In this document: positions 23,812-64,000 of the stretch, piece after piece
Numbering within the stretch: position 1 is the stretch's first letter
How the letters are laid out: every line of letters begins with the position of its first letter
The notes under the pieces: generated by a model
Databases searched by the model: none
Told to the model about the DNA's origin: nothing
Seen by the model: the letters and a program-made list of their open reading frames with translations, nothing else
Assembly (NCBI GenBank): GCA_964534665.1
Contig: CAZHRT010000004.1
Location: 10,956 to 74,955 of the forward strand
DNA length: 64,000 nt
Reading direction: 5' to 3'
Source: an uncultured Methanosarcinales archaeon
GTDB taxonomy: Archaea > Nanobdellota > Nanobdellia > Woesearchaeales > JAHJBD01
Translations under genes and position numbers: made by a program

Positions 23812-23835
23812 ACTATTTCTTGAACAAGAAAACAA

Positions 23836-30289: not shown

Positions 30290-30301
30290 AGATATAAATA
30301 A

Positions 30302-31252: not shown

Positions 31253-31258
31253 TAAGTT

Positions 31259-31927: not shown

Positions 31928-33177
31928 ATTTACTAAATTTGTCAAAACACGGCATAAGAAAGAAAAAGTATGATCACGAATTTATTTATAGGTATCCTTC
32001 TTCTAGCAATATGCCCAAATTTAATCATGATGGATTTTCTATTACTACAAAAAAAGCTGCATTATACCTCCACTTACCTTTTTGTTCTAGTCCATGTAAA
32101 TTTTGCCATTATTATAAAATACCTAAACCTAATCCAAAACAAATAACAAAATATTTAGAATATGTAAAAAAAGAAATAAAGTTCTATAATGGTATTAAAG
32201 CAACATCTCTTTTTTTGGGTGGCGGAACACCAACATTTCTTGAGTCAGAACAATTAATTGACATATACTCTTACCTAAATGATGCATTCTCTATTGGAGA
32301 CATTGAAAAAACCATAGAATCCAGCCCAGAAACATTAAACAATAAGAAAATTAATACTTTAGCTGATTTGGGATTTAATAGACTAAGTATTGGTGTTCAA
32401 TCATTCAATGATTCGATAAATAAAAATGTTGGCCGAGCACATAATACTAATCAATCAATTCAAGCTATTAATCAAGCAAAAGATGCAGGGTTTAAAGTTA
32501 ATGTTGACTTAATTTATGGTCTACCCTCACAAGACACCAATTCATGGAAAGAATCTTTAGAAAAAGCATACAGATTAAATGTTGATTCTATAACAGCATC
32601 AGAACTTAGGGTGTTACCAGGATCATATTATTACTACACTAACGAAAAGTTCGCATCCGAAAAAAAAATGTTGGGGATGCACGAAACATTTATTGATTTT
32701 TTTCATGATAAAGGTTACAATTTAATATTCCCTTACCAATATTCAAAACAGAAATTTGATTTTTTAGAAACTCAATGGGGCAATAAACAGTTTTTGGGTT
32801 TAGGCGCATCTTCCTGTTCTTATATTGACAAGTGGGATTATAATAATGCTTTTCCTTTGGGCCTTTATTACAAATATATTGACAAATATGGTTATGCCGC
32901 AATTAAAGGGAAAAAACTGAACTTACAAGAACAAATGTTAAGAGAAATCTTACTTGGATTAAAGATCATTAATAAAGGAATATCTAAAAAAGAGTTAAGT
33001 GATAAATATGGTCTTAATAATTTTAAAGTTTTTGATCAATTAGCAGACCTTAAACTAATAGATAACAATCAAAACATAACTCTCACAACAAAAGGAACCC
33101 TATTTTCAGATGAAGTGGCAAATTTTATACTCCGAAAGTTTCAAGCATCCCATCTTCTCCAGAACCAAACTCCATAA
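31918..33177 (+). CDS. HemN/HemW-like radical SAM protein (oxygen-independent coproporphyrinogen-III oxidase family)
   Basis: CSSPCKFC (Cx3Cx2C), GGGTPT and IGVQSFNDSINKNVGRAHN motifs typical of the HemN/HemW family, plus the HemN C-terminal domain. Confidence 0.75.
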   Translation: MDLDLLNLSKHGIRKKKYDHEFIYRYPSSSNMPKFNHDGFSITTKKAALYLHLPFCSSPCKFCHYYKIPKPNPKQITKYLEYVKKEIKFYNGIKATSLFLGGGTPTFLESEQLIDIYSYLNDAFSIGDIEKTIESSPETLNNKKINTLADLGFNRLSIGVQSFNDSINKNVGRAHNTNQSIQAINQAKDAGFKVNVDLIYGLPSQDTNSWKESLEKAYRLNVDSITASELRVLPGSYYYYTNEKFASEKKMLGMHETFIDFFHDKGYNLIFPYQYSKQKFDFLETQWGNKQFLGLGASSCSYIDKWDYNNAFPLGLYYKYIDKYGYAAIKGKKLNLQEQMLREILLGLKIINKGISKKELSDKYGLNNFKVFDQLADLKLIDNNQNITLTTKGTLFSDEVANFILRKFQASHLLQNQTP

Positions 33178-35071: not shown

Positions 35072-38000
35072 GTGGATGATTTAAATATGTTTAAGAGTAA
35101 AATACTACTCATTTTAATATTGGCTCTTGCCGCATATAGTGTATCTGCTGCAGAATGTAGCGAATGTGGCGCACACACCACAGCATGTGATTGCCCTTCT
35201 TTTTGTGAAAATTCTGGAGATACTAGCGGTACTTGTGGAGATATTATACGTTGTCAACCAGTTGCAGGAAGAACAATATCTGAATGTAGTTCTTTTACAG
35301 ATGGTGCAGTATGTACATCATCACCTGGCTGTTCATTTTGTTCAGGGAGCGGTACTTGTTCATCTTTAACTAGTGCAGGCAAAAATACTTGTAAAAAACA
35401 GCCAGATTGTAGTTGGGACGAAACAGATGTTGACCCAGTCAACCATTTTTGTACTGGTAGTGCAAAATCTTGCTTTGATATAGGTTTGGATCCAAGTTGT
35501 ATAGCTGGCGATTTTTGTGAATCAGATTGTAATTCAGCAGCATTATGTAGTTGGGACACATGTGACGGTGCAGTTGAATCTTGTCAAAGTAGAACATCTG
35601 AAATCGAATGTCAAATTACGGGTAGCAATTGTTTTTGGATTGGCGATAATATTGATCAGGACCAAGATATTTACACCAAAAACGATATTTGTCGAACAGG
35701 AGAAACGCTTCAAATGGATTTTTGGTTATTAGATGTTGCCGATAGGGATGGCATTTGTCCACCAACAGATTGTATTGATGAACCAGGTGATTGTGCAGGT
35801 GCAGGTTACACTGGCGAGGCACTTACATGGTGTCAAAATAATCCTTATTTGATACATCCTGGCGTTTTTGATTTTCCAAACGATGGCATTGACCAGGACT
35901 GTAATGGTGCAGATTCAACAAAAGCAATAGATTGCGATTCATCCCTTTCAGCATGTGTTTATATTCACAAATTTGATAATGATGTTTTATCAGAACACCC
36001 AGTAGATTTTTATCCTTGTTATTTACAAGATCCAACTTGTAAAAAATGTGATCGTGATTATGGTTTAACAGACCCTTGTGTCAGAACATGTTCTGGGACA
36101 GATTGTTGGAAACTAGGAAAATATAAAACTATTATAAAAAGACATTCCAAAGAAGAATTCGAGTATTCTTTTGATTTTGATAATTTAGGTGAAACTAAAT
36201 GTAATAATGCAGACTGGTATGGCTCAGATGGTGTTTGGCGTGATGCTGGTTGGTTAGGTGCTGGCGGAGATTTAAATTGTTGTGGAGATGATAGGCCCTG
36301 GGTTTATGAAGGAATAGCCTTTAGACTTTATGAAACTGCAGCAGCATCCAGAGAATCTGTTTTTAGAGTTTTTAATGACGATCTACAAGATTCTTTTTTC
36401 TTAGGCCAAAGCTCACAAGCAAATTTGGTTAATTTGGAAGCTAAGGGGTATTCATGGGAAACTTTTTTGTATGCTCCACCTTCAACAGGAACTACTGGAG
36501 ATGAAGTGTGGGCACTATATAATCCATTAAACGGCGATAGGATCTTTACTACAGATACTAATGAAAAAAATACCCTTGTAGGTGCTGGCATAGCTGCTGA
36601 CTGGCACCCAACTCAAACATTTAGGGCACTTGGTCCAACAGAATCTCCCTCTACAACTATTGCAGTACACCGTTTTTATAATCCTGATAAAGGTATTCAT
36701 TACTTTACAAAAGACGAAAGTGAAATTGTTACATTAACAGATGGTCCAGAAATTTTTACTTGCGGCTCTGACATATTTACAGCATGTGTTGATTCAAATA
36801 TTGTCAAAGATGCAGATGAAGACGAAAATGTTTGTATAGGCTGTGGCCATTATCCATTAGATGGAAATTTAGGGGGTTTAGCTTGGAATGAGGAATTAGA
36901 TTCAAATAATTGTTGCGGTAACGAAGAAACTGATTGCGGCATATCTGATGGGCCAAACCTTTGCTATATGGATGATACCTCTTCAAGATGGATTGCAGGT
37001 ACACAAGGCGAAGAAAATAGTGTGGGTACCGTAATTAATATGCCTTGTGATGATTCTGATTATACATTATTACCTAACCTAGAATGGGTTCCATGCAAAG
37101 AAAATAGTTTTATGGCCCCTTTTTCACCAACAAAATTAAGGTTCCTGATTGGAGACGTTCTACACGAATATCTTTGTAAAGATAGTGAAATTCTTGCTTG
37201 TTGTGGTCCAGATAACACAAATGAAGATTGTCTTGTTCCATTAAGCAATGCTCGAACTACAACAGATGGCCCTGTAACAATTGGCACAGATACTTTTTAT
37301 TGTACTTCTTCATTTACATGGACAACTCAACCAGATGTAGATGAAGCCTCTTGTATTGCTTCAACAAATCCTGTTACTAGCACAAATAATGTTTGGACAG
37401 GCACAAAATGTTGTGGTGATGATGGTCTTGATGATGATTACTCAGACCATTTAGGGATTGGTGCTTGTTTAAATGGTGCAGTAATACCTAATGGTGATAA
37501 AGCAGCTAATGATCTGATTGTTGAAAATGGATTATTATATGGTTGTGTTGTAGATACTTCAGATTTTCCAGATATGTCAGAAGATATCATAACTCCTTCT
37601 GATCGTTGTGAGATAATTTCCAATAATTTCTGTTCATATTCTGGGGATTGGAGCACAGAAATTTCAACCAGGGATAATCCTACTTATCGTAATAGGACAG
37701 CAACTAAGCATGAATCAATTTCTGGTGGCACAACGAGTGCTTGTTGTGAAGTTAGCGAATGTTGGGATAGTAGAACTTGCGTTTCACATGGCACAATTAT
37801 CAACCAAAATTATGCCTGTATTAATGGTGATTGGGAAGACAGAGAACTTCGTTGGAAATGGGACTTCAGTGAAAACGGTTATTGTTTAAGTAATGATCAG
37901 TGCCTTGTAGAAGATCTTGCAAGTGCAACCGACAAATGCATTGATTCAGGAGAATACATATTTGACCATTATTGTGAAGAAGGGAACTGGACATCTAGAA

Positions 38001-40987
38001 CAAAACTTTTAGCAACAACTTTATTAGACATCGCGGCCGACAAGGTTTTTGCAAATTATACTTTGTTTTGTGACACTTACGATACTGTATTAAATTATCT
38101 TGATTACGAATCATTCAATTTTCCTGTAGGAAGCCGTTTTACTAAAGATCTTGCAGTATGCTCAGACCCTAATGTGGTTGAAACTAAGTCTTGCGTTAAC
38201 AAAGTCTGTGTTATGGAATTTCCTTTAATTGAATTTGGTGAAGAAGTTGTTGTTTTTGCAACGTCCTTAAACAATATATATGAAGAAGAGGATGTCCCAC
38301 TTAGTTATTTAAACACATTCTTAAGAGCTTACCATGAAACTTATGGAGATATTGATTGTAGTTCAGCAATGGATAACGATGGATTATTCCATTCTTGTGA
38401 TGGTGCAGATGCAAGAATTTGGTGGAATAACAAACTACAAATGATCATTACTTCATCAACAGCAATAACAACTACAGATATTCCTGGTGAATTTGGGCTC
38501 GCAGGCCTTAGTTTTACACAAAAAATAGCTTTCTTTTTCTCAAACCCTTTTGAAAACATATTTAATTTTATCAAAGGCGTTTTAAACGATCCTGATCGTG
38601 ATCCTAGTTTTAATCAAAAACTTGATCTTGATCAAACAGTACAATCTGAAATTTATGGGTTTATACGAAATACTACTGAGTTTAGTAGAATTTATCTTGC
38701 AAGGGATGGCCCAAGATCCATAAGGGGGATTTCTGAAGAAATCTATGTTGATCAAGAAGACTCTGGTAAAAATAAAAATTATACTTCAATTACTTATACT
38801 TGTATTAATGAAGACGTGTGTGGCAGTGTTTCAACTTTTGATGCAAAGGCTGCTGGCGACGGGGAAAGAATCTCTTGTACAACTGACGTAACAGGAATTA
38901 ATAGTTATGTTATTTCTAGGTTCCCTTCAGGTAGAGACACTTGGCTTGATTTAACAGCAAAAACAAGGTTATCTGGCACAAGCAATACTAATACAGCAGC
39001 CCCAAACATAATTACAATAGTTTCTAATCCAGCTTTAGCCACACTTAATCCAGATCAAACAGAAGCAGAGTTTGATTTACAATTACTTGGAGAAGGGTGT
39101 GTTTGGCCATTCACATATTTGTGGGATTTAGATGACAATAGCAATTTTGAGACAACTACTGAAGATCCAGAAACCTCAACAACAATATCTGTTCCTCAAA
39201 CGCAAGAATATGACCCAATTGAAACAATCGCAAACATAAAAGCAAAAGTTTCAGATGGCACACAAGAATCAACAGTTTATAATTTAGCCTTACCAATTAA
39301 AAAACTCCCACAAAAAACTAATGCACAATGTCCAAAAATATTACCTCGGCGCGCACATTGGAGCGATACTGTTAAAGACGGAACATTTGAACAAACATGG
39401 ACCAATGGTGCATATTCACCAGAAACAAAAGAATCAATATATAATGTTGCACCTAATGAATGCCATTGGACATGTGATGACCTTTATTATCTTTCAGAAT
39501 ATGATGATCCACCAATTGAAGAAGCAGTTGAACCACCGCCAGAAGAACTTAATCCAAGACCTAAATGGGACGCTGGATGTGGGGACTCTTGTGGTGAAGG
39601 CTTATTTTGTTTAGATGGTACATGTATTCCATCTCTTAATCATATAGGCGCATGTGTTTCAGCTTCTTATCAAGGTAGCCCAGTAACTTGTAGGGACCAC
39701 AATTATGATCTTACATCAGAAATGTGTACTTTACAAGGTGAAAACTTTGATAGTGATGGAACTACTTGTGACAATTCAAATTTAGACTCAACAAATCCAG
39801 ATTTATGTTATATCCATATTGAAAACTCTGTTGATAATGAGGGTAGAATATTCTGTCCAAATGGTTGCGTCTTTAGTGACGATCCCGCAAACTTGTATGT
39901 TTCATCTTGCATACCTGATAGGGACACCATAACACCCGATGATGAACCAGAAACTTCTGCTGTTGACCCAGAAGAACCAGAGGCATGTTGCTTAGAAACA
40001 CAACATAATGAATATGGTAGGTGTGTTTCAAACAAATGTTCAAAAGAAAATATCCCTTTATATAGTGTTCCATGTGAAGGGTATAATACAGGGGTACTTA
40101 ACCATAAATTTTCTAACCAAATAGTTTATTCTTGTTTTGGTGCTGAGAAATGTTCATATAAATGTGATATTGATACTTTACTTGACCCAGCTAGCGGGGA
40201 GTGTAAACCTTTAGGTACAATTTACGAAGTTGGCGATGACGTACCAGATATAGTTTGCGATTATTTAATTAACAACCAAGTCCAATGTACTATTACTCGT
40301 CCTAATTCTTATACTTCAGAAGATGGAATAGAACTCTTTTGGAGATATTATGATTCACAAGGTAATGTTCTTGCTGATTTTTGTGGTGAATGGTCTAAAA
40401 AAGCAAGTAATGGTTGTGTTGGAAATTCAGATTCATCTTATTATGATTCCATTTATTATGATGCAACTACTTCATCTAAGACAATAACTTTTACTGCAGA
40501 TTATTCAGACCTGGCACACATTGGTTTATGGACTCGCGGCTGGGAATTTATTAGTGTAGATAATTATGAACCTTCAGGGTGGTCTAATGGGTTAGATATT
40601 AATATTATTCCCTTAATTGATTGTAGTTATTCAAGTAGTGATAATAAAGCCACTTGCCAAATAACATCTTATTCTTATGATCCAACGGATGGCATAGAAC
40701 TCTTTTGGAGGTATTATGATGCTAATGGTAATATTTTAAAAGATTTTTGTGGAAATTGGGAACCAAATATTATTGACCACCCAGATTCTAATTGTGCTGA
40801 ATTAGGCACAAATCAAAATATATTTTATAATCCTACTACCTCAGTTCGTACAATAACTTTTGAGCCATCTTTTGCCACTTATCCTAATCTTGCAAGTTTT
40901 GGTATCTGGTCAAAGGGCTGGAAAAAAGATGGTGCAGATTGGGATACAACACCTTGGTCAAAAGAAGAGCTCACAACCCTATCTTAA
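35072..40987 (+). CDS. Giant secreted Cys-rich surface protein 1 (1971 aa)
   Basis: Signal peptide MFKSKILLILILALAAYSVSA|AE, an N-terminal region with >60 Cys, repeated R(F/I)(Y/F)(N/T)...G.H(Y/F)FT..D..E modules, and duplicated DGIELFWRYYD...DFCG modules near the C-terminus. Confidence 0.8.
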   Translation: MDDLNMFKSKILLILILALAAYSVSAAECSECGAHTTACDCPSFCENSGDTSGTCGDIIRCQPVAGRTISECSSFTDGAVCTSSPGCSFCSGSGTCSSLTSAGKNTCKKQPDCSWDETDVDPVNHFCTGSAKSCFDIGLDPSCIAGDFCESDCNSAALCSWDTCDGAVESCQSRTSEIECQITGSNCFWIGDNIDQDQDIYTKNDICRTGETLQMDFWLLDVADRDGICPPTDCIDEPGDCAGAGYTGEALTWCQNNPYLIHPGVFDFPNDGIDQDCNGADSTKAIDCDSSLSACVYIHKFDNDVLSEHPVDFYPCYLQDPTCKKCDRDYGLTDPCVRTCSGTDCWKLGKYKTIIKRHSKEEFEYSFDFDNLGETKCNNADWYGSDGVWRDAGWLGAGGDLNCCGDDRPWVYEGIAFRLYETAAASRESVFRVFNDDLQDSFFLGQSSQANLVNLEAKGYSWETFLYAPPSTGTTGDEVWALYNPLNGDRIFTTDTNEKNTLVGAGIAADWHPTQTFRALGPTESPSTTIAVHRFYNPDKGIHYFTKDESEIVTLTDGPEIFTCGSDIFTACVDSNIVKDADEDENVCIGCGHYPLDGNLGGLAWNEELDSNNCCGNEETDCGISDGPNLCYMDDTSSRWIAGTQGEENSVGTVINMPCDDSDYTLLPNLEWVPCKENSFMAPFSPTKLRFLIGDVLHEYLCKDSEILACCGPDNTNEDCLVPLSNARTTTDGPVTIGTDTFYCTSSFTWTTQPDVDEASCIASTNPVTSTNNVWTGTKCCGDDGLDDDYSDHLGIGACLNGAVIPNGDKAANDLIVENGLLYGCVVDTSDFPDMSEDIITPSDRCEIISNNFCSYSGDWSTEISTRDNPTYRNRTATKHESISGGTTSACCEVSECWDSRTCVSHGTIINQNYACINGDWEDRELRWKWDFSENGYCLSNDQCLVEDLASATDKCIDSGEYIFDHYCEEGNWTSRTKLLATTLLDIAADKVFANYTLFCDTYDTVLNYLDYESFNFPVGSRFTKDLAVCSDPNVVETKSCVNKVCVMEFPLIEFGEEVVVFATSLNNIYEEEDVPLSYLNTFLRAYHETYGDIDCSSAMDNDGLFHSCDGADARIWWNNKLQMIITSSTAITTTDIPGEFGLAGLSFTQKIAFFFSNPFENIFNFIKGVLNDPDRDPSFNQKLDLDQTVQSEIYGFIRNTTEFSRIYLARDGPRSIRGISEEIYVDQEDSGKNKNYTSITYTCINEDVCGSVSTFDAKAAGDGERISCTTDVTGINSYVISRFPSGRDTWLDLTAKTRLSGTSNTNTAAPNIITIVSNPALATLNPDQTEAEFDLQLLGEGCVWPFTYLWDLDDNSNFETTTEDPETSTTISVPQTQEYDPIETIANIKAKVSDGTQESTVYNLALPIKKLPQKTNAQCPKILPRRAHWSDTVKDGTFEQTWTNGAYSPETKESIYNVAPNECHWTCDDLYYLSEYDDPPIEEAVEPPPEELNPRPKWDAGCGDSCGEGLFCLDGTCIPSLNHIGACVSASYQGSPVTCRDHNYDLTSEMCTLQGENFDSDGTTCDNSNLDSTNPDLCYIHIENSVDNEGRIFCPNGCVFSDDPANLYVSSCIPDRDTITPDDEPETSAVDPEEPEACCLETQHNEYGRCVSNKCSKENIPLYSVPCEGYNTGVLNHKFSNQIVYSCFGAEKCSYKCDIDTLLDPASGECKPLGTIYEVGDDVPDIVCDYLINNQVQCTITRPNSYTSEDGIELFWRYYDSQGNVLADFCGEWSKKASNGCVGNSDSSYYDSIYYDATTSSKTITFTADYSDLAHIGLWTRGWEFISVDNYEPSGWSNGLDINIIPLIDCSYSSSDNKATCQITSYSYDPTDGIELFWRYYDANGNILKDFCGNWEPNIIDHPDSNCAELGTNQNIFYNPTTSVRTITFEPSFATYPNLASFGIWSKGWKKDGADWDTTPWSKEELTTLS

Positions 40988-41088
40988 AAAATTTAATTTT
41001 TCACATTTTCTAGTTATGTATATACATTAACAATTAATCAAAACTTTTATATTCATATTAATTCTAAATTATTAAAAAAAGAGGTAAA

Positions 41089-42711
41089 ATGGGTAGAAAA
41101 TCACAAATCACAATATTCTTAATTTTATTTATGGTATTATTAATCCTCTTTGGCTTTTTGTTTTTTGTACGTTCTCAAGTTACTGAAGCAGGAATCGAAG
41201 AAAAAGTTGAAAAAGCATTCAAAGATTTCCTACAAAGAACTTCCTTGTCTGTTTATGTACAAGAATGTCTTGAACTAACTGCTAAGGACGCGATTGTTTT
41301 GGCAGGAATTCAGGGAGGGATATTGTATGACTTACCAGGTTTACCCACATTTACAGATTATAATGGCCCTTACATTATTGGTGGTGAAAGGAATATCCCT
41401 TTTGATTACCAAGGAACAATTTATCCGTTAAGATTAGCTTTGTTACGTCCAAGAAATATTGGCCCACTTAATCATAATAATTATGTTTCAATTCCAGACT
41501 ATCCTTATTCTGGCGCATTACTAAACAAATCAATAATCCCTGATGTTGAAATGCTATTTAATTCTGATTCTGGAACAACTATCCAATTTCCAGCCCTTTG
41601 CGACAATAGAAACCAATCATCAAATTTTTATGGTGTTGTGGGTGCAGGATTTTCATGTGAAGATTCAGATTATAAATTAATTGAAAATACTCAAAACTAT
41701 CTTGAAAAAGAGATCTCTAATAAAATTCAAACATGTACCGATTTTCAGATATTTAAATCAGAACTAGGGTACAATATTACCGAAGGCAATCCCAAAGTTG
41801 ATGTTTTGTTTGGCGAAGAGGACGTTATAGTTCTACTCGGTTACCCTTTAATCATCACATTCAAAGGTAATCCTCCGTTAACCAAAGTTACAAATTTTAG
41901 TATAGACTTACCAGTTAGGTTTAAGAAAATGTATCATCTTGCAAAACATACTGTAAGGCGGGATTCCAGAGATATTTTTTATAATATCACCAATGTAATA
42001 GAACTTAATGATTGCTGTGTTTTAAATACAACAAGTCAAAACAATGAAAGAAACAACTGCACAGTTTCATGCTCACACCCAGGAATGGTAATAAACAAAA
42101 TACCTGACTATTGCCAAAACCGTGCTTCACAACCTTTTTGTAATATAACTGGAAATTTTACAGACATATTAAACATAACTGACAATCATTCTCTGATTAA
42201 AAATAAACCCCTTAGTTTATTTATAGCAATTGAAAATCGTCGACCTGCACTAGATTATATAAGTGCTACAGTAAATCAAAGCTTCCCTTATTATACATAT
42301 CTTGAAGAAAACTATGGTCCCAGTTTTGTTCCTGTTAATTTATATAATAAAACAACTGATCCTTTAAATACTGGGGATCAGATTCAAGTTTATGCTGGCG
42401 ATGAAATTCTGATTTTACCAATTGGCATAGATCCGGATGAAGACAATTTAAGTTACAAATACCATGGTTGGAAATCTAATAGGAATGTTCCCACAGGTTT
42501 TTGCTCAGGATATGGTCCTCAAGCTGGTGCAACGAACTTTTGGGAAACATCAAGAAATTATACTCTTGGTTTTAATACAACATCCCAATTAAGAAAAGAT
42601 GCAAAGATTATCACTATTCCAGCAGATGTTGATCCACATTGTATAATGATTAATGTATCTGATAATGAAGGATTAATTGATTATCAAGTAATTCATATTC
42701 TTGTTAAGTAA
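41089..42711 (+). CDS. Type-II-anchored extracellular protein rich in N-glycosylation sequons (540 aa)
   Basis: N-terminal TM IFLILFMVLLILFGFLFFV and ~17 N-x-S/T sequons (NKS, NQS, NIT x4, NFS, NTT x2, NCT, NFT, NHS, NKT, NLS, NYT, NVS ...). Confidence 0.55.
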   Translation: MGRKSQITIFLILFMVLLILFGFLFFVRSQVTEAGIEEKVEKAFKDFLQRTSLSVYVQECLELTAKDAIVLAGIQGGILYDLPGLPTFTDYNGPYIIGGERNIPFDYQGTIYPLRLALLRPRNIGPLNHNNYVSIPDYPYSGALLNKSIIPDVEMLFNSDSGTTIQFPALCDNRNQSSNFYGVVGAGFSCEDSDYKLIENTQNYLEKEISNKIQTCTDFQIFKSELGYNITEGNPKVDVLFGEEDVIVLLGYPLIITFKGNPPLTKVTNFSIDLPVRFKKMYHLAKHTVRRDSRDIFYNITNVIELNDCCVLNTTSQNNERNNCTVSCSHPGMVINKIPDYCQNRASQPFCNITGNFTDILNITDNHSLIKNKPLSLFIAIENRRPALDYISATVNQSFPYYTYLEENYGPSFVPVNLYNKTTDPLNTGDQIQVYAGDEILILPIGIDPDEDNLSYKYHGWKSNRNVPTGFCSGYGPQAGATNFWETSRNYTLGFNTTSQLRKDAKIITIPADVDPHCIMINVSDNEGLIDYQVIHILVK

Positions 42712-42936
42712 TACTTAACTTTTCTTCCATTTATTACTGAGTATGTAGTTATCTTATCTCTACTTATTAATTAATACCTCTGCTTATTAACTATTACTAA
42801 ATAATGTATCTACATACTAAGTAATTTTACTGTTTTAACTCTTAAAAATCAAAACATTTATATAAAATACATATGAAAGAATACTTTATATTACTTTTTC
42901 AATAAAAGTATGTAATCGTATGAAAAAGGGGCTTTA

Positions 42937-43080
42937 ATGAAAGAACGTATCACAATTACCTTAGATAAAGAACTTCTAGACTGGTTAGATAAAAAAATCG
43001 ACGATAAAGTATTTGCAAATCGTTCTCATGGCTTTGAGTTCTTATTAAAAAGGAAAATGGAGGACGAAAATGAAAGTTAA
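42937..43080 (+). CDS. Ribbon-helix-helix (CopG/Arc/MetJ-type) DNA-binding protein, 47 aa; below the ORF-track cutoff
   Basis: MKERITITLDKELLDWLDKKIDDKVFANRSHGFEFLLKRK is a beta-strand/helix/helix pattern typical of RHH. Purine-rich stretch AAAAAGGGG 6 nt upstream. The 3' end overlaps the ATG of the 2567-aa gene by 11 nt. Confidence 0.6.
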   Translation: MKERITITLDKELLDWLDKKIDDKVFANRSHGFEFLLKRKMEDENES

Positions 43081-56700: not shown

Positions 56701-59700
56701 GAATTAAGAAGTTTAAGTGAGGGTTCTAATTTATACAATATTAGATGTTATGATACAATTGCTGGTTACGATTCCTCAGACGAAAGAAATCGTTTTGATA
56801 CTGATATTGACATAGTTGTCGATACAATTAATCCACAATTAACAGTAAATACTTTTAATCAACGAACCGGAGATACACAAGTTTCTTTATCAGGCACATC
56901 AACAGATACTAACTTAGAAAATGTTAGTATTACTGTTGGCGAAAGTGACGGCAGCGTATCAACACTTGCAAAATTCACAGGAAATGATTGGAACGCAAAC
57001 ATTAACTTAGCTGATGGTATAAACATAATCACAATCACAGCAAACGACAGTGCTAAGAATGCAAACACAACAACCATCGCAATCACAAAAGTAGTTTCTG
57101 GTCCAACATTGGTTAATTATGTTCAAATTCCATCTTATACCAATAGTCAAGAACTAGAATTTATAGGTTATATCAGTAGTCCAGATTCAACAGTTAATAT
57201 GTACTTTTTAGAACATGGTGCAAATATTAATCAAGCATTATTAGGTACCGGTATCGAACCAAACACTTTAAATTCTGGCCATCTTGCAACCTACAATTAC
57301 GATCATGCAACTACACCTTCTAGTGAACAATCAATACAAGGCCAAACATTTGATATTGAAAGCAGAAATCTTCCTGATAATGAACTTGAAATATCTGAAG
57401 ATGCACGTAATTATATTGAGCAATTTATTACTGAGAACAGTGCAGCATATTTATCTTTTGGTGATGGAAATAATCTAGCCAATCTTACCAGATATAAAGT
57501 TGATAATACTTTTGATAGGGGTGTTGGTGAAGGCAAAACTTATTGGGTAACTCCAACTGAAATTTTATCTGGCGAATTTAGCGCAACCAGTTTAACTGTT
57601 TATTCAACTGCAAAACCAACTGGCTGGTTTAAGTTAAGCAAAAATCTTAACCCTGAAGTTAAAACTTATGTATATCTCTTTGGAGAAGAGTTTGAAAAAC
57701 AAGGCCAGATAACTTTATTAGATACCTTTTATGATATTACACCACCAACAGGTGCCCACAACCCAACATTAACTGAAATTGTAACACCGACAGTTGAAGT
57801 TGAACTTGACGGCACTAATATTCCAATAAATACAAACTCTGTTGTCTTAAAAGTTGAAGGGTCAGATATTCCTCTTTGTGGAGAGGGGGACTGTTTTAAT
57901 CTAAATTGTGAAAGTGATGACGAAGATCCAAACACCTGTAAACTTTCTTACACATTACCTGAGTCAGAAGCAACCCGTTTAATACATGTTGAAGCAAGCG
58001 ACCGTGCAGGCAACAGTTTATCCCCAGTTTTAGAATGGGATCTAGATTTTGTTGAATTTGTTTCCATAACTCCAGATTTTAAAATGTTTAGTGGTGAAAC
58101 AAGGGTTGATGTTAATATAGAAGGCATTACAAACAAAGTATTCACTGGTACAGACACACCTAATCTTGTTTTTGATTTTAGTTCAGCACCTATTCCTGCA
58201 GAAGATAACTTCAAAGTGATTTCAGCTGTGATTACAGGACCTGATGGTGTTACAGTTCCAACTTTAACTTTTTCTGGCGAAGATACTGGCAAAATTTTTA
58301 CTTATACTTCAACAGCATTTAATTCTGGTGAATATCAAGTAACTTTAACTTATCATCGTGTAAAATCTGGTCAAGAATTAAGTGAACAAACATCCGATTT
58401 TACATTTGTAATCGATCTTGCCGGCCCAAACATAGATTTAGTAACAACATTTGAAAATAATCAAATCGAACAAGATTATGCAGGTAATCTCGAAGTTTCA
58501 GTTACAGATACTAGTAATATTAATAATGTTTATCTTATTGTTGATGACAATGAAGATCCACATTATCCATTAACTTTTAACCCAGAAACTTCAAATTACG
58601 AACTTAATTTCCAAAGTCTTGATTTAAGTTTAAACAGCCATGATATAGATTTTAAAGCATTTGATCAATTTACTAATGGCGATAATGAACCAACTACTTT
58701 TACAATTGTTGACACTCAACCCCCAAAACTTAGTTTATTAAGTTCTGAATATGTACGAGATCCAAGCCCAACAATTGTTGTAAACACTTCTGAACAAGCT
58801 AGTTGTGAAATGAATTATACTGGAACAACAACCCAGATTGATACAACTACTGAAGGGGTTCTTAATCCAATTCATGGCTACCTTCATACTTTTACAGGAT
58901 TAACTTTTGACCCACAAATTACAGATGTTTCACAATCAGTAACCTTTGCTTGTAAAGATTCAGAAGGCAATTCCGCTTCAAAATCTTACTCAATCACCTA
59001 TTCATTAACACAAACAGAAACAACCCTTACATCAAGCAATGGCGAAGAACCAACTTCACCTAATACATATTCTATCACTAATCTAGAAGATGGTGGCGAT
59101 GTAACAAATATCTTAATTGATACTGGTATGGTTAACACAGAATGTTTTTACAAAGAAAACGAACTTTTACCTGCTATTGGAGATATAACCCAAAAAATTG
59201 AAGGTGGGTACTCAACTTCACATTCTCAATCAATTACCTTACCTTTAGCAAGAGGAACAAACCAACAAACATACACTTATTGGGCCTATTGTAAAGATTT
59301 GTCTGGCCAACATGTTTCAGATATTCAACAAATTAACCTTTTCATTGATTTACAACTTTCTTTAGTAAGGTATTTACCAGTATACACAAATAATCCAACA
59401 CCTACACTTTCAATTGATATTGTACGCTCAGCTTATTGTAAATATAAAACTGGTAGTGATGATTATGTTACTTTTAAACCTACTCCAGATAATCATCATG
59501 AAATACAACTCACCACCTTATCAGAAACAACTCACAATTATGATATTCAATGTTTTAAAGAATCATCAGGTTATGATAGTTCATCAGAAAGGGATAAGTT
59601 TGTAACTCCAATACCAATAACTGTTGATACTACCAACCCTGAACTTACAGTTAATAATTATAATGTACGTACTAATCTTAATCAGATTTCTTTATCAGGT

Positions 59701-62700
59701 ACTGCAACAGACACGTATTTAGAAAACGTTAGTATAACTGTTGGCGAAGGCGATGGCAGCGTATCAACAATTGCAACATTCACAGGAAATGATTGGAACA
59801 CAAATATCAACTTAGCTGCCGGTGTAAACACTATCACAATCACAGCAAACGATAGTGCTAAAAACATAAACCAAACAACCATCACAATTACAAAAGTAAC
59901 ACAGCGTCCAACAGCACCTACATTAATCTCTCCGCCAAAATATATTGGAGATGACAAATATATAATAAAAGGATTTGTTGACATTCCTAACATGGACATC
60001 CATGTTTACTTACTTCATCAAGGAACAAATATCCCTGAGTTAACAGGTCAGTTAGGAATAGATATTTCATCAGAAGATCTAGATTATTCTCAAATAGAAA
60101 CTTACGACTATAATTACTATTCAGATACGTCAGGACCAACTTCTGAAATATTTTTACAAGGCACATATGATAAAAAACTCGGATTAAAATCAATTGGCAT
60201 ATCTGGAGAAATAGATGATATAATAAAGGCAGGATTACAACAACAAGAATTATATATTTTATTTGACAACGAACAATATAATCTGCCAGATTATCAAAGA
60301 TATAATATTGATGATACACACACAACTATCTTTGGTACAAACCATTGGTTAGACTTTGTAGATGATTTACCTTCTAGTTTACCTGATAGTGGAGCTTTTA
60401 CAATATACACTTTAGATAAGCCAACAGGATGGTTTGAAACAGAGATAACATTAAAACCAGAAAATAACACTTACATTTATGTTTATGGTGAAGAATTTAC
60501 TTTAACTCCAATAATACCTTCTATTAAAGAAATATTATATGATGCAGAATTACCTATCATTAGTCAAGTAAGACCGCCAGCAGTAACCGCCCAGTCAGAT
60601 TCATCAATTCAAGCTAGGTTAAATGGCACTGGAACTCCAGTAGATGTTTCTTCAATAATAATTACCTTAAAAGGTTCAGACAGAGACATATTTGAAAGAC
60701 TAACCGATGTAGAGGGTTATGGTTGTTCAGGAACTTGTACTTTGACTTGTGAGAACCATTTCTGTGATTTAGTTTATCAACCAATTGATGCTTTTACCGC
60801 TGGTTTTTATAAAGTTAACATTACTTTAAATGACTCAGTTAATAACTTAAAATGGCGGGACTGGGATTTTGAGTATAATCCATTAGCCATAACTCGGCCA
60901 GATTTTACATTAAACAATTCCCTACTCTTTGGTGTAGATGAGGGGGCAAAATGGCATACTTCAAATCAACTGCCCGACTTTAATTTCTCATTTAATAAAG
61001 CTGTAAATATATTAAGTGTAACTCTTGGCGATGACACATTACAACCACTTTCACAATCTGTTGATAATCGAAATTATAGTTATCGTGCAATAAATGCATT
61101 AACTGAAGGCGACCATACTATTACTATTTCAGCTCAAAGAATATTAGGTGATGGGACACCTGGTGGGCAACAAGATTATCCTTTCAACATATACATAGAT
61201 ATTTCAGGGCCGTCTGTTTCATTTGTTAACTTACCTGAATCATTTGAATATAACGACGCAATTTCAGCAACAGCTTCCGATACAACTGGAATAAAGAAAG
61301 TAGATCTTATTGTTAATACAGCCCCATATGAATTAACGTCTGGTGAACCAGGAACATATTCTTTTACATTTGCAGAACTAGGGGTTACAATACAACCAGA
61401 TACACCGTATACACTCCAATTACAAGGAACAGATGTATTTGATAATCCTTCATCATCAGAAAGTTCACAAATCACATTAACAGATTCAACTAATCCAGTA
61501 ATCTCTTTAGTTTACCCAGAAGATCTGGGTGAATATACCGGATATGTTAATTCACCAACACCAACAATTACTGTACGTACAGATGATCCTGGAACATGCC
61601 AAATATCAACTTTTGAACCAGCAGTGTGGGGTGCAGTATCTGAGTTTGTTTATGATAGTGATGATGATTCAAGTGGTCAACTACACGATTTTAATTTGAA
61701 TCTACAACAACAAGGTGAAAACTATTTCCTAAGATGTACTAACCAATTTACTGGTCAAACAGACGAATCACTTAACATAGTTTTAGATAATACACACCCA
61801 ATAATTACTAGTGTACAATCTTCTGGTGGGTTAGTATTAATAGATACAACATCCAACACAATAACTGTAGAAACAAACGAACCAACATTATGTAATATTA
61901 GCGATTATAAATTAGATCAAACACCTTGGTTTGAAAATGTCCAAATTAGTGATGGACATACACAAGACCATTCTTATACAAGCAACCTATTTGGTCAAGG
62001 TATACATAGGATCAATATTGATTGTATTGATCAAGCAGGAAACAAAGCAGCACAATTCAATACACCATATGATATAACTTTTGAAATACAACTGTTCGTT
62101 GATGTTATTATTAATGAAACCCAAGTTTCTGGTACACCTAATGGTGGAACAACTAATATTGATACTCCAGAATTAATGGTAAAAGTTAATCAACAGGTAA
62201 CATGTACTTTTGATGGTCAAACAGGGACACCATCTGAACCAGAGGCAGACGCTACAGGTCAAATGTTTTATTATTATTACTTAGCTATTGACTCTGCTTT
62301 GGGAAACACCCAACATGAATATGATGTCTCCTGCATTAACACTAAAAATTCACAAGACACAGAAACAATAATCTTTACAGTAGACACTCAACCACCTTCT
62401 ACCCCAACTATAACTTCACCAACAGACAGTCAAACAGTTGGAAGAACAATTACTGTTGATGGAACAACCGATACAGATGCAACCCAAGCAATAATTAAAA
62501 TTGGCGATTCTGAAACAACAACTGCTGTAACTAGCCAATCATTCTCACAAGAAATTGATATTTCAGAAGAATCAGAAGAAGAACTTGGAATTACTGTTCA
62601 ACTAGTAGATCAATTTGGTGATCTTGATAGCGGAAATGGAAGAAGTTCTACAGCTTCAGTAACAGCAATTCTTGATAAAACATCACAACCACCAATATGG

Positions 62701-64000
62701 GGTGAAGAATTAATACAATATACTAACAGTGTTAGTGATGCACAAATATATGGGACAGCAGAACCAGATTCAAAAATTTCTTGTTATAATGCTTCAGAAA
62801 ATGGGGGTAATGGAGATTTTATTGAACCAATTGCAACAGGGGACCACGATGCAGATGAAAACGGAATTTTTAGTTGTGTTGTATCTTTAACACAAGGCAC
62901 AAATTATATCTACGCAACAGCAATTGACAATTTAACTAATCCAGTTAGCGAAAGATCAGAATACATTAATGTTATATTTGACGATAAATCACCACAATTC
63001 TTAGTAGGTAGCAATAAACCAAGAGATAATGGATTAAACTATCAACATCGAACACTCGAAATTAAATTTAGAGATCTTGGTGGTGTTATTGACAGAACTC
63101 AAATTGAAATGAAACTTGATAATGAACTGGTTTCCAATCTTATTACAATTTCTCCACAAGAACAAGATGGGTCAACCATTTACTGGATAGCAAGAGCTGA
63201 AGTTACTCCAAATGATAAAGAAGACCATAATGTGACAATCTTAATAAAAGACAAAGCAGGAAACTCAAATTATACTAATTGGACATTTAATGTTCTCATT
63301 CCCCCACCATGTAATGATGGTCTTGATAATGATGGTGATGGCTTCTGTGATTTCTTTGGTTCAGAGTGTATCGAAGAAGGTGTTCAGCCTGGAGACTTAG
63401 GTTGTGATAGTCAAACAGACGACGATGAAACAAATTATGTTTGTGGAACAGATACTGGTACTGATGAACAATGTTGTGATGGTCTTGATAATGATGGTGA
63501 TGGTACCCTAGATTATGGTGGTGAAAATGGGGACACAGATTGTGACAGTATTAAAGATAATCTAGAAGAAGAAATTATTATTCCTATCTGTGGAGACAAT
63601 ATCTTAAATCAAATAACTGAAGATTGTGATGGTGATGAGTTAAAAGATTTAACTTGCCAAGAATTTGGTTATGGTGGTGGCGAACTTGTATGTACTGATT
63701 GTGCATTTATAACTGATAGCTGCGATACTCAGGCAACTACTTATTGTGGAGATAACATTCAGAACAGAGATGCCGAAGAATGCGATGGTGCAGATTTAAC
63801 AGGTATAACCTGCACAACTTTAAGTGATATTTATACTGGTCCAGGATTAGCTTGTACCTCTGACTGTCAATTTGATTTATCAGCCTGTGAATTAGTAACT
63901 GGAGAAACACCTCACTGCAACGATGGAACAATCAATCAAGTTTCAGAATTATGCGATACAGTCGATGTAAACAGTGTAACTTGTCAAGATCTTGGTTTCT
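50773..64000 (+). CDS. Giant secreted surface protein 3 (>4400 aa, 3' partial, runs off the window) with tandem ~940-aa repeats and C-terminal Myxococcus-type Cys-rich repeats
   Basis: The start overlaps the previous stop (TAATG). Signal peptide MNNLNKIWISILVLISLVTTVNA|GR. No + strand stop in this frame through nt 64000 (spot-checked at 57001, 63901 and 63961). Only short antisense ORFs are present across 13 kb. Confidence 0.75.
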   Translation, partial: MNNLNKIWISILVLISLVTTVNAGRAYCSDTECQQVWFDGSYATLNDSTPSPWTRFYNGATPVTNLVQNAELTVINYRGSETIALPFGGFNYHHYSGSLNADDLSLHNYTIKNENPLDTGKYLFHAELQSPTGRVQTYELGFNIDVTKPAITSIKINDDSYTSGNKEVAIDQPITIEITANDNDGEVDIATGVQGINITEGATTINLTNTTPAKTTFTYTFPANYYSSLGTHTFTILVYDEVLNVNDGQTFTLELTAAAPIPADIINIPSPSYTNLNSLPIKGTAQLEVDVNIRSLYLEGGQLLSTTVNPVTVPITHISESLGTELVVDQLDTTTIRVSKDTADQVLTWLTELSGNENLYMEIPNHDLGNKDRYLVLFSRPVTSEIEGHYNQITIQQDLVAQLSPGTGMAFYNEPKPEGWFETSIPLAINKLNTLKISTSKFGAETFLDDIQIIHDSILPKQSHEPSKTDSITPTIIVKLDGTGTPINQDEVTLSIETLGVNQPISAFNLNCNIESQPNNCTLTYQLTTTRGAFHNITVNANDSAGNRMDTLTWEIEVIDEQDVTAKFDITGATTIPGILNTNFTTDNAPEFNFVFSQEVEIVSAVATFNEDAPVIPPIPTLPNPGTLIESNFVFTPDTTFTQGSYQITVTYKIRHEGTSLSAESKTFDFVVDLNPPVFDLTKTTELSGTIEKNADINISAIVNDISRVNSVIATINSKDYDLHPSKESNNHTLTIKEFAEDLTLGTPYTLTLTATDYFGKTKSETMTFTLEDQQPPIINKLSPINVNTDNPTIVITTNEEASCVMTFGAAPLQTSDPGTSTSYGYEHTFTLSGLILGEPNTPSFTCTDDSFNPTTEGDFSYTYSTENTELTITSSNGEGTAPVSITTLQDVGEEENIVSTLTVSTSQVETQCYYLVQANQPLEADFTSENIINSGFATTHSLTINYDDLTSGIEGTQYNYWFLCKDRSETYVEDTSIGLLIDLKLSLIKYTPIITNSEDIDLEIDVVRNSICSFKTGSDAYQTFSPNRLTHHTTTLTGLSEGTNNYGIQCFEGGTLGSSEERQQFESAITITVDTIKPKLEINSYNKITSSSAVQLSGTATDTNLENVSITVGEGDGSVSTIARFTGSTWNANINLADGDNLITIIANDSAKNINDTIITITKVTSGPTLQNMVTISDYVGSSELTVIGYYNVPDAVVSMYFLEDGTDINGLPLGQGQNPSDLGTAELEDFNYQKTTHTIGPQPVMGSTINIAGSNIDNNEILVSETDRLVINDFKTANGAAYASFGDENNLPDLTYYEVDVTRQAGSGNSAQYWVKFIDNIPTNIDTLTTFTIHSSEKPTGWFKTIVNLNSDVKTYVYLTAEYLTLTGPITYYETVYDSQNPTITNALPQVITTKLNIPISAKLDGTLSPVDVNSIVLTLNDQIFNNWEITGLETAASCSENAGCLLDCNENICDLGFALDFTPQDTENGFWIDGQTYKVNISFNDTAKRFIWKDWEFMVDTSQVSQPNFGLNNSKVIEDKYYTSLSRPSINVSYLETVEVTSQSLKLGEGIISANIIETYTEADTKFNYTIDTGLSSGTYTFLIESKRIFEGEVRSDPLTHPFPFIVDKSVPILTSPSTFEGNEVEFNYQGNLEVTVTDDSLVDSVFIILNEGTIDEIKHKLTFTEGNYKIAFQDLGLQLDDNPTIKYWANDTFNQQNEITSNQITIVDKQPPRLSLLSSEYVATHLPTIVVNTSEQASCEMNITGTTTRLGTTSQGTPHADHGFIHELTGLTFNELFPDVSQEITLACKDPQGNSASKPYTITYSLTQTQITLTSNNGEGPTSPNTYSITDILDSGDVTNLIINTGMVNTECFYKENELLPAIGDITQKIEGGYSTSHSQSITLPLARGTNQQTYSYHVYCKDISGQYESEIVSVNLFVDLDLNLVSYSPAFTNTVDPTFSIDIVRPAYCEFKTGGNAPSTFQRSADIHHSTELRSLSEGSNLYNIRCYDTIAGYDSSDERNRFDTDIDIVVDTINPQLTVNTFNQRTGDTQVSLSGTSTDTNLENVSITVGESDGSVSTLAKFTGNDWNANINLADGINIITITANDSAKNANTTTIAITKVVSGPTLVNYVQIPSYTNSQELEFIGYISSPDSTVNMYFLEHGANINQALLGTGIEPNTLNSGHLATYNYDHATTPSSEQSIQGQTFDIESRNLPDNELEISEDARNYIEQFITENSAAYLSFGDGNNLANLTRYKVDNTFDRGVGEGKTYWVTPTEILSGEFSATSLTVYSTAKPTGWFKLSKNLNPEVKTYVYLFGEEFEKQGQITLLDTFYDITPPTGAHNPTLTEIVTPTVEVELDGTNIPINTNSVVLKVEGSDIPLCGEGDCFNLNCESDDEDPNTCKLSYTLPESEATRLIHVEASDRAGNSLSPVLEWDLDFVEFVSITPDFKMFSGETRVDVNIEGITNKVFTGTDTPNLVFDFSSAPIPAEDNFKVISAVITGPDGVTVPTLTFSGEDTGKIFTYTSTAFNSGEYQVTLTYHRVKSGQELSEQTSDFTFVIDLAGPNIDLVTTFENNQIEQDYAGNLEVSVTDTSNINNVYLIVDDNEDPHYPLTFNPETSNYELNFQSLDLSLNSHDIDFKAFDQFTNGDNEPTTFTIVDTQPPKLSLLSSEYVRDPSPTIVVNTSEQASCEMNYTGTTTQIDTTTEGVLNPIHGYLHTFTGLTFDPQITDVSQSVTFACKDSEGNSASKSYSITYSLTQTETTLTSSNGEEPTSPNTYSITNLEDGGDVTNILIDTGMVNTECFYKENELLPAIGDITQKIEGGYSTSHSQSITLPLARGTNQQTYTYWAYCKDLSGQHVSDIQQINLFIDLQLSLVRYLPVYTNNPTPTLSIDIVRSAYCKYKTGSDDYVTFKPTPDNHHEIQLTTLSETTHNYDIQCFKESSGYDSSSERDKFVTPIPITVDTTNPELTVNNYNVRTNLNQISLSGTATDTYLENVSITVGEGDGSVSTIATFTGNDWNTNINLAAGVNTITITANDSAKNINQTTITITKVTQRPTAPTLISPPKYIGDDKYIIKGFVDIPNMDIHVYLLHQGTNIPELTGQLGIDISSEDLDYSQIETYDYNYYSDTSGPTSEIFLQGTYDKKLGLKSIGISGEIDDIIKAGLQQQELYILFDNEQYNLPDYQRYNIDDTHTTIFGTNHWLDFVDDLPSSLPDSGAFTIYTLDKPTGWFETEITLKPENNTYIYVYGEEFTLTPIIPSIKEILYDAELPIISQVRPPAVTAQSDSSIQARLNGTGTPVDVSSIIITLKGSDRDIFERLTDVEGYGCSGTCTLTCENHFCDLVYQPIDAFTAGFYKVNITLNDSVNNLKWRDWDFEYNPLAITRPDFTLNNSLLFGVDEGAKWHTSNQLPDFNFSFNKAVNILSVTLGDDTLQPLSQSVDNRNYSYRAINALTEGDHTITISAQRILGDGTPGGQQDYPFNIYIDISGPSVSFVNLPESFEYNDAISATASDTTGIKKVDLIVNTAPYELTSGEPGTYSFTFAELGVTIQPDTPYTLQLQGTDVFDNPSSSESSQITLTDSTNPVISLVYPEDLGEYTGYVNSPTPTITVRTDDPGTCQISTFEPAVWGAVSEFVYDSDDDSSGQLHDFNLNLQQQGENYFLRCTNQFTGQTDESLNIVLDNTHPIITSVQSSGGLVLIDTTSNTITVETNEPTLCNISDYKLDQTPWFENVQISDGHTQDHSYTSNLFGQGIHRINIDCIDQAGNKAAQFNTPYDITFEIQLFVDVIINETQVSGTPNGGTTNIDTPELMVKVNQQVTCTFDGQTGTPSEPEADATGQMFYYYYLAIDSALGNTQHEYDVSCINTKNSQDTETIIFTVDTQPPSTPTITSPTDSQTVGRTITVDGTTDTDATQAIIKIGDSETTTAVTSQSFSQEIDISEESEEELGITVQLVDQFGDLDSGNGRSSTASVTAILDKTSQPPIWGEELIQYTNSVSDAQIYGTAEPDSKISCYNASENGGNGDFIEPIATGDHDADENGIFSCVVSLTQGTNYIYATAIDNLTNPVSERSEYINVIFDDKSPQFLVGSNKPRDNGLNYQHRTLEIKFRDLGGVIDRTQIEMKLDNELVSNLITISPQEQDGSTIYWIARAEVTPNDKEDHNVTILIKDKAGNSNYTNWTFNVLIPPPCNDGLDNDGDGFCDFFGSECIEEGVQPGDLGCDSQTDDDETNYVCGTDTGTDEQCCDGLDNDGDGTLDYGGENGDTDCDSIKDNLEEEIIIPICGDNILNQITEDCDGDELKDLTCQEFGYGGGELVCTDCAFITDSCDTQATTYCGDNIQNRDAEECDGADLTGITCTTLSDIYTGPGLACTSDCQFDLSACELVTGETPHCNDGTINQVSELCDTVDVNSVTCQDLGF
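54094..59724 (+). repeat. Intragenic tandem repeats of ~2.8 kb (periods 2826 and 2805 nt) inside giant gene 3; at least three copies, with diverged partial copies on both sides
   Basis: Anchor string NVSITVGE(G/S)DGSVST(I/L)A.FTG.DWN.NINLA.G.N.ITI.ANDSAKN occurs at 54094, 56920 and 59725. Co-periodic anchors SC(V/E)M.(F/I/Y)..., KPTGWF...YVY and others have the same spacing. Confidence 0.85.

Follow-up and report, generated by a model that had tools for sequence, protein, structure and literature searches.

Giant proteins with arrays of immunoglobulin (Ig)-like domains are already known as adhesins in bacteria, such as SiiE (2YN5 is one of its structures; PMC5466336), and giant surface proteins, named SPEARE, are known from DPANN archaea, among which the Ig-rich giants of Nanohaloarchaeota have been linked to host interaction (PMC6642349, PMC10266531). 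Giant genes are fewer in Archaea than in Bacteria (10.1101/2023.11.21.568195), and the nanohaloarchaeal SPEARE proteins were the only archaeal giant examples with supporting data that we found in the literature. For uncultured small archaea, the genome gives few hints of how they make contact with other cells, and giant surface proteins are one of these hints. Here we describe a locus on contig CAZHRT010000004.1 of an uncultured archaeon, within a stretch of 64,000 nucleotides (nt; contig positions 10,956 to 74,955, forward strand) that we call the window and whose own numbering is used below. It consists of three giant genes (g1, g3 and g4), a smaller gene for a membrane protein (g2) between g1 and g3, and a neighbouring NHL-repeat gene. 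About 30 kb of this low-GC archaeal chromosome is devoted to the three huge secreted proteins, which are probably sticky surface fibres. By homology, g3 and g4 belong to a giant family of Ig-like domains that has not been described before; they represent two paralogous types of it and lie in tandem.

The tandem of g3 and g4

As the original prediction claimed, the giant open reading frames (ORFs) are real: g1, g3 and g4 together with g2 fill 35072-64000. Five independent assemblies (ENA, Logan/SRA and JGI) carry them intact and match the window letter for letter (100%) over 13-22 kb, save for one in-frame indel of 18 nt, so the frameshifts or stops named as grounds for rejecting the ORFs did not appear. 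With a stop-codon frequency of about 7.5% per codon (computed by hand from base composition), chance ORFs of 2000-4400 codons are excluded. Searches for the exact g1 and g2 proteins found them on 11-12 contigs, the longest of 262 kb (NCBI, JGI, Logan and ENA), and on a 243.6-kb JGI contig g4 is called at 4917 amino acids (aa), its last 508 aa lying beyond the window. Six or more metagenome samples or runs (JGI, ENA and SRA) contain the archaeon of this locus. The indel falls in a repeat that encodes a PTTPTT linker, present in three copies here and in two copies in the public assemblies L001 and L003. It is the sole polymorphism seen over the 13-22 kb, and in these assemblies the strain-level variation anticipated for proteins of this size did not show. 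The repeat is placed just ahead of the g3 stop and the g4 ribosome-binding site.

Each giant has a signal peptide of its own, again as predicted, with n, h and c regions judged by eye (MFKSKILLILILALAAYSVSA before AE in g1, MKVKLFIFLGLLLVLSSFVVA before QV in g3 and MNNLNKIWISILVLISLVTTVNA before GR in g4), and no internal transmembrane (TM) segments were found in the three proteins. More than 90% of the ~9500 residues of these surface proteins are invisible to Pfam and NCBIfam. Annotation with hidden Markov models (HMMs), proposed earlier as a check, returned Glucodextran_B three times, DUF5648 and a weak Big_7; the Cys-rich repeats of g4 did not reach the cutoff of TIGR02232. The expected Cys-dense N-termini are there in g1 (5.8% Cys overall) and g3 (5.0%) but not in g4, where Cys are sparse (0-4 per 100 aa) up to aa ~4180-4200. 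Two of the predicted motifs, P(E/T)GWF and DGIELFWRYYD, are present; a literal SC..HT.D was found nowhere, and a looser Ig-type block, C...H...C.D..GN, occurs instead.

The bulk of g4 is built from a unit of ~935-940 aa that is present 3.6 times, with the PxGWF motif at aa 417, 1341, 2282 and 3217 (Table 1). Pfam places one Glucodextran_B domain in each full unit. The units resemble one another in a mosaic fashion, with 15-93% identity in windows of 50 columns. Compared as DNA, they reach at most 79-86% over 200-760 nt, which rules out a recent duplication or an assembly collapse of the repeats and indicates that the array is old and not an artefact of assembly. An AlphaFold2 model computed on the four-copy alignment of the unit was all-beta, at low confidence (predicted local distance difference test, pLDDT, 52). 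When this model was used in Foldseek, the multi-Ig proteins contactin, titin, complement C5, DSCAM and SiiE (2yn3, 2yn5; TMt 0.46-0.48) were returned. Furthermore, a profile from 21 sequences over the first part of the unit, namely the PxGWF module and the domain after it (alignment A2), matched the bacterial Ig-like (BIg) domains 50-52 of SiiE (2yn3_A) with E 8.3e-8 over 167 profile positions. Sequence searches of the PDB with whole g1, g3 and g4 gave zero matches.

The profile of the g4 unit was searched against 1.84 billion protein representatives, in which g4 itself is absent (best match 409 bits, compared with ~1500 for the units). In public metagenomes, the search brought up over 1000 relatives, of which 1131 reached E<=1e-3 and 22 reached E<=1e-30; the best are giants of 2300-5600 aa. 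Viral contigs scanned with the same profile gave zero matches. In P0016, P0019 and P0013, profile positions 32/35 to 861/879 were matched as a single collinear block, indicating that the order of domains over ~850 aa is kept across species, beyond duplication within g4. Domains found in the homologues include Big_13, Big_3_3, PKD, Glucodextran_B and CarboxypepD_reg. Most family members have no C-terminal TM segment; P0108 and P0043 carry one.

Two types can be told apart in this family. Type A (P0012, P0013, P0014, P0016, P0018 and P0024) runs from a signal peptide and a C-x4-5-C motif through a head and the units to a post-repeat region, and g4 has this order too, with the head, the unit block (profile positions 35-879) and the post-repeat region in succession. 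Using a head profile built from five of these proteins (all but P0024), we found the head solely at the N-terminus in all six and never internally. Type B (P0033, P0040, P0045, P0051, P0055 and P0127; 2238-4087 aa) has a Cys-rich head followed by units. The g3 protein belongs here, as its Cys-rich core with invariant Cys is followed by PxGWF/Ig units and it is collinear with the six type B giants over ~1000 aa.

The 128 Cys of g3 lie mostly in aa 30-1000. Between aa 650 and 1000, about 30 of them are invariant among homologues of 34-38% identity (alignment A3), and the profile of this Cys-rich region found no relative in the PDB. For the CarboxypepD_reg-like domain of g3, whose score falls just under the cutoff, the homologue P0040 has four clear copies. 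The PxGWF modules of g3 are at aa 1913 and 2333. The two tandem giants have few modules in common, namely the PxGWF module (g3 aa 2273-2348, similar to unit positions 32-107) and one Ig module (g3 aa 1993-2078 and 2402-2467, similar to unit positions ~462-542).

The original prediction had explained g3 and g4 by partitioning of a single ancestral gene. This was not supported, as g4 starts with a complete type A head and g3 is of type B on its own. A related possibility is that the two ORFs are halves of a single gene: a mutation or an error of assembly would have divided it, or a frameshift would join the halves in vivo. The g3 stop and the g4 start do overlap (TAATG), the C-terminus of g3 is a linker-like PT repeat, and some homologues join a g3-like Cys-rich head and g4-like units in one protein. 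However, g4 has its own Shine-Dalgarno sequence (GGAGG, 7 nt upstream), ATG and signal peptide, and a stop lies in the g4 frame 118 nt upstream of that ATG. The junction is the same in the five assemblies apart from the in-frame indel. Furthermore, the homologues of the g4 head are the N-termini of six proteins that stand alone and in which the head is never internal, and g3 already holds PxGWF and Ig units and, at 2567 aa, is inside the type B length range. Since the head is always N-terminal in these homologues and g3 has the length of a complete type B protein, g3 and g4 are separate genes and not fragments of a single one, and we consider a split gene very improbable. The locus gives a clean, assembly-validated tandem of two related giant gene types.

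The orphan g1, the neighbouring genes and the chromosome

The third giant stands apart. Comparison of g1 with g3 and g4 by BLASTP, phmmer and hhalign detected no similarity; g1 as a paralogue of g3 was considered and dropped (hhalign probability 0.1), and g1 is unrelated to both of the others. Against 5.8 billion proteins, g1 matched only itself and three short Cys motifs. Its 114 Cys are concentrated in aa 1-1000 and 1500-1700, and its signal peptide is its sole hydrophobic segment, with no C-terminal hydrophobic anchor; the same holds for g3, which ends in the PT linker. The DUF5648 match in g1 covers 118 of 134 profile positions. DUF5648 has been implicated in glycan recognition, of O-antigen and glucan (10.1101/2025.01.06.631476), and the module in g1 is a candidate glycan-binding module that can be expressed and tested. 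We regard g1 as a lineage-specific, Cys-rich orphan giant with a putative lectin-type DUF5648 module. A reading of the C-x-W-C modules as PSI-domain-like was dropped, as one or two loose regular-expression instances were found, with no Pfam match.

The protein between the giants, g2, had been predicted to be a sequon-rich membrane glycoprotein; it has one N-terminal TM helix (aa ~7-27), 12 Cys and 17 N-X-S/T sequons versus 5.6 expected (z +5.2). Pfam and NCBIfam gave no family for it, it is alone in its 90% cluster, and AlphaFold2 on the single sequence was uninformative (pLDDT 32). Another possible reading of the g2 N-terminus (MGRKSQ-ITIFLILF...) is a class III (pilin-like) signal. The NHL propeller noted earlier as a neighbour is present on the opposite strand. 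Three of its stretches exceed the NHL threshold of 20 bits and other propeller families match weakly; it has an N-terminal TM anchor, directly followed by the motif CYDGILNRGELGVDCGGSCEAIC (in the region of aa 36-60). By these features, g2 and the NHL propeller are predicted single-pass membrane-anchored ectoproteins. Motifs of the form ETGIDCGG.C, which resemble CYDGILNRGELGVDCGGSCEAIC of the NHL protein, recur often in the giants P0036 and P0108.

Directly ahead of g3 lies an ORF of 47 aa, for which the gene calls of five public assemblies have an entry. Its aa 3-44 match the N-terminal ribbon-helix-helix (RHH) domain of NikR with E 7e-7, in full-length NikR models whose cutoffs are unreachable for 47 aa, and it scores 17.2 bits against Pfam RHH_1 (cutoff 20.5). 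A TATA-like motif, TTTATATA, is located upstream of this ORF. TATA-like motifs also precede g1 and g2, suggesting three transcription units.

Next, we considered the chromosome that carries the locus. The window contains genes for PolD DP1 and DP2, Cdc6, MCM, TBP, a FEN1-like protein, EndA, Trm5/Tyw2 and a protein with an eIF-5/eIF-2B-type domain, as well as an RNase P p30-like ORF (Pfam match below cutoff). This set of housekeeping genes is archaeal, which identifies the window as archaeal chromosome. From the low GC and the character of the homologues, we infer that this may be a 'small-genome/DPANN' archaeon; the N-terminal TM helix of the NHL protein and the 'GVDCGGSC' motif that follows it are a putative resemblance pointing the same way.

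The GC content raises the question of whether the region is a horizontally acquired island, a provirus or an assembly chimera. It is ~30% for the window, and 33-37% in the giant-gene region compared with 28-31% in the remainder, as might be expected of foreign DNA. However, the excess lies wholly at codon position 2: GC2 of the giant genes is 0.40-0.45 versus 0.31 in housekeeping genes, while GC3 is 0.16-0.19 versus 0.19 and relative synonymous codon usage (RSCU) correlates with that of housekeeping genes at r 0.95-0.96. An excess confined to position 2 reflects amino-acid composition, and the agreement in GC3 and RSCU indicates that the locus is native and was not recently acquired. In addition, searches for tRNA and Rfam elements found none, the PHROGs scan gave no phage family except a DUF5648-like PHROG of unknown function, and no integrase or transposase was found among the ORFs scanned against Pfam. 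On contigs of up to 262 kb, the locus again lies beside the radical-SAM and NHL genes in the same order. A foreign or chimeric origin is, on this evidence, extremely improbable.

A radical-SAM cluster (28768-33177) is located directly upstream of the NHL gene, together with small ORFs at 28213-28554 and 28511-28738. The product of 28768-30066 matches HxsB, the His-Xaa-Ser system maturase, with 391.8 bits (curated cutoff 370), and its C-terminus reads ...HDSHDSHGGHD. It is followed by a second radical-SAM gene (30302-31252, minus strand), an unannotated ORF of 222 aa and a HemN/HemW-like gene. A polytopic membrane protein (27115-28191) matches weakly to the C-terminal domain of archaeal A24 prepilin peptidase (E 4e-4, below cutoff). 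Further upstream, cdc6 is followed by an intergenic region of 24% GC with AT palindromes, with the PolD genes adjacent (22600-24128). Replication may start in this region, although a search beside cdc6 for the repeats of an origin-recognition box gave none that was clear.

Table 1. Positions of the giant genes, their parts and their immediate neighbours in the window
Feature	Positions	Strand	Details
NHL-repeat beta-propeller protein	33125-34978	-	616-617 aa; Pfam NHL 120.3 bits; divergent from g1
g1 ORF	35072-40987	+	1971 aa from GTG; 1966 aa from ATG 35087 (start of other callers)
g1 signal peptide	35087-35149	+	MFKSKILLILILALAAYSVSA then AECSE; n/h/c regions by eye
DUF5648 module, g1 aa 430-555	36359-36736	+	Pfam PF18885, 56.9 bits vs cutoff 25
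g1 C-terminal tandem duplication	40241-40960	+	two ~122-aa modules with DGIELFWRYYD; phmmer self-comparison E 5e-17
g2 ORF	41089-42711	+	540 aa
RHH-like ORF	42937-43080	+	MKERITITLDKELLDWLDKKI..., 47 aa; overlaps g3 start by 11 nt
g3 ORF	43070-50773	+	2567 aa
g3 conserved core, aa ~325-1400	44042-47269	+	common to six other giants; phmmer E 1.6e-21 to 3e-41, Z = 1.8e9
CarboxypepD_reg-like beta-sandwich, g3 aa 469-549	44474-44716	+	Pfam 31.2 bits, cutoff 32.3
g3 C-terminal tandem duplication, aa 1815-2120 / 2245-2532	48512-50665	+	each copy PxGWF module + Ig module
18-nt tandem repeat	50692-50746	+	CCAACCACCCCAACTACT, 3 copies; (PTTPTT)n linker at g3 C-terminus
g4 ORF	50773-64000	+	4409 aa in window, open to window end; frame open from 50656
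g4 N-terminal head, aa 6-276	50788-51600	+	signal peptide, C-x5-C, first domains; profile i-E 2.2e-20
g4 super-repeat array	51739-61833	+	aa 323-1252, 1256-2194, 2195-3130, partial 3130-3687; phmmer windows + unit HMM
g4 post-repeat region, aa 3691-4200	61843-63372	+	phmmer E 1e-63 to 2.5e-34: P0018, P0014, P0012, P0016, P0013
g4 Cys-rich acidic repeats, from aa ~4180	63310-63999	+	CGDN..N...E.CDG type; run off window end

A proposed role at the cell surface

What might these proteins do? The adhesin role put forward in the original prediction is still the best available reading: the Ig arrays that match SiiE, the DUF5648 module of g1 and the lack of an enzymatic domain all point to it. We judge it probable, if only just, that this is a native locus of Sec-exported, fibre-like cell-surface adhesins. 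In such a scheme, the giants would leave the cell through Sec and, stabilized by disulfides, would extend as long fibre-like adhesins; the Cys counts are even (114 in g1, 128 in g3, 12 in g2 and 4 in the NHL protein). With their distal Cys-rich or lectin-like modules, they could attach to glycans or proteins on the surface of a second cell or of a particle. Since g1 and g3 have no membrane anchor, we propose that non-covalent contacts with other proteins would keep them on the surface, the possible partners being g2, the NHL protein and g4. Expression of g3 and g4 may occur on one transcript together with the small RHH-like protein, and translation of g4 may be coupled to the termination of g3. 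If the adhesin reading is true, the genes are handles for finding the partners of this archaeon.

Several points weigh against this proposal. No anchor can be recognized in g1 or g3, and the last 508 aa of g4 are beyond the window. Ig-like arrays are known from S-layer and envelope proteins too. At the pLDDT of the unit model, the fold matches show the general Ig-array nature only, and attachment to a 'host' is speculation. Finally, N-X-S/T sequons are depleted in the giants (z -3.9 in g1, -4.0 in g3 and -3.2 in g4), unlike in many of their homologues.

Sequon content varies widely at this locus and in the family. The NHL protein has none, and in g2 sequons are enriched threefold. Many homologous giants are enriched (z +10.6 in P0019, for example), and no single trend holds for the closest homologues, with depletion in P0124, P0018 and P0051 but not in P0055 (z +6.3) or P0045 (z +1.0).

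The main rival explanation is that the giants are structural envelope proteins, forming an S-layer, a sheath or a protective coat as a lattice or matrix over the cell. Glucodextran_B-type domains and Ig-like arrays are also found in surface-layer-associated proteins, the window shows no other S-layer candidate, and the proteins are invariant across samples, as a structural protein should be. However, no archaeal S-layer family was detected in g1-g4 with Pfam or NCBIfam, the nearest being Glucodextran_B, a generic beta-sandwich. S-layer subunits that form lattices do not typically reach 2000-4900 aa or contain a super-repeat of 940 aa, and g1 has a lectin-type module. We therefore regard an envelope role as unlikely, while giving it real weight.

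It has also been proposed that the nanohaloarchaeal giants act as pores or secretion channels (PMC6642349, PMC10266531), and the present giants could, by the same logic as for SPEARE, be secreted or delivered effectors that are polymorphic-toxin-like, lytic or channel-forming. The final 508 aa of g4 and the downstream genes, which are outside the window, could hold domains of this kind. Within the ~9.5 kaa (thousand aa) that were scanned, however, Pfam, NCBIfam and PHROGs gave no catalytic domain, that is, no protease, toxin, nuclease, ATPase or glycosidase, and no laminin-G, and g1 and g3 have neither a C-terminal TM segment nor a cytoplasmic domain. An effector function thus seems quite improbable to us.

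In many of the homologues, a motif of the form (I/L)D-T-T-G-P is located 5-15 residues from the C-terminus (P0013, P0024, P0033, P0040, P0045, P0124 and others); examples of these tails are ...IDTTGPGGCINVGNITYCI and ...VILDTTGPEGDIEID. These proteins lack a membrane anchor, and the shared ending reads DTTGPxG...V or, in looser form, (I/L)D-T-T-G-P-x-x...V/I. The tail is missing from g3 and g1. Beyond the adhesin proposal, one may imagine a widespread giant-fibre family, probably DPANN-like and built from the unit of ~850-940 aa, in which the DTTGP tail would serve head-to-tail or donor-strand assembly, and in which a coupled type B and type A pair with an RHH regulator would make up a two-component attachment organelle, with g1 as a lectin accessory. 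We put this forward as a decidedly doubtful extension.

Comparison with described systems

The giant genes of Omnitrophota and other uncultured prokaryotes (10.1101/2023.11.21.568195) resemble those described here in being very long metagenomic ORFs with a presumed role in cell-cell interaction. The Omnitrophota proteins differ in that they exceed 10,000 aa and carry many enzymatic domains (glycosyl transferases, hydrolases and peptidases), none of which were detected in our proteins. For g1, the likeness is to the DUF5648 of the Bacteroidales BSAP toxins, where it is receptor-binding, and of GH70 enzymes, where it is an auxiliary domain (10.1101/2025.01.06.631476); the comparison rests on g1 aa 430-555. 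In contrast to both, g1 has a single module in an archaeal Cys-rich orphan of 1966 aa, with no MACPF or GH70 partner, and glycan binding by it is putative.

The acidic Cys repeats of g4 recall the myxo_disulf_rpt family (TIGR02232). At aa ~4180-4409, they are 33-41% identical to repeats on Myxococcota and Haliangium contigs, and equally 33-41% identical to Cys-rich repeat proteins on Methanosarcinales contigs; the identity to P0124 is 56%. Genome and metagenome scans with C-terminal pieces of g4 brought up Cys-repeat proteins of Myxococcota and Methanosarcinales contigs only. The Myxococcota and Haliangium repeat regions match TIGR02232 (E 1.6e-11; 43.8 bits versus 20.8 for the Haliangium locus L007), whereas g4 aa 4140-4409 gave no match to this family and matched only acid_disulf_rpt, with 17.6 bits. 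Like the g4 segment, P0124 stays under the TIGR02232 cutoff, and the one match of the two, to acid_disulf_rpt, has 17.6-19.8 bits where 41 are required.

SPEARE (PMC6642349, PMC10266531), which we compared by description only, is an archaeal parallel. The proteins of Nanohaloarchaeota (3000-9400 aa) and those here are alike in being archaeal giants with a signal peptide and long extracellular arrays of Ig/FN3-like domains; both would take up several percent of a small genome, and contact with another cell has been proposed for both. What defines SPEARE, however, is laminin-G together with a TM segment near the C-terminus, beyond which comes a conserved ATPase or 'restriction-like' domain in the cytoplasm. 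In our giants, no laminin-G was found in g1, g3 or g4 (Pfam, E<=0.01) or in segments of g1 and g3 (E<=1), and a SPEARE-type C-terminal TM segment is absent from g1 and g3, the end of g4 being outside the window.

A structural likeness is seen with SiiE of Salmonella enterica (595 kDa, 53 BIg domains; 2YN3/2YN5; PMC5466336), as both are giant, rod-like arrays of BIg beta-sandwiches. The tandem bacterial-Ig-like domains that mark SiiE-like adhesins are present in g4. The differences are in export and in make-up. SiiE is a substrate of type-1 secretion without an N-terminal signal peptide, whereas the proteins here are archaeal and have Sec-type signal peptides, and no components of a type-1 secretion system were found among the window ORFs. 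SiiE repeats a near-uniform single domain, whereas the repeated block of g4 is heterogeneous and ~940 aa long. Nothing in SiiE corresponds to the Cys-rich heads or to the acidic Cys repeats. Relative to all of these systems, the new elements are the families of type A and type B, the mega-module, heterogeneous but conserved, of ~850-940 aa that is repeated 3.6-fold, and an invariant-Cys core without a known structural relative. Also new are the tandem, apparently coupled arrangement with an RHH-like gene and the orphans g1 and g2.

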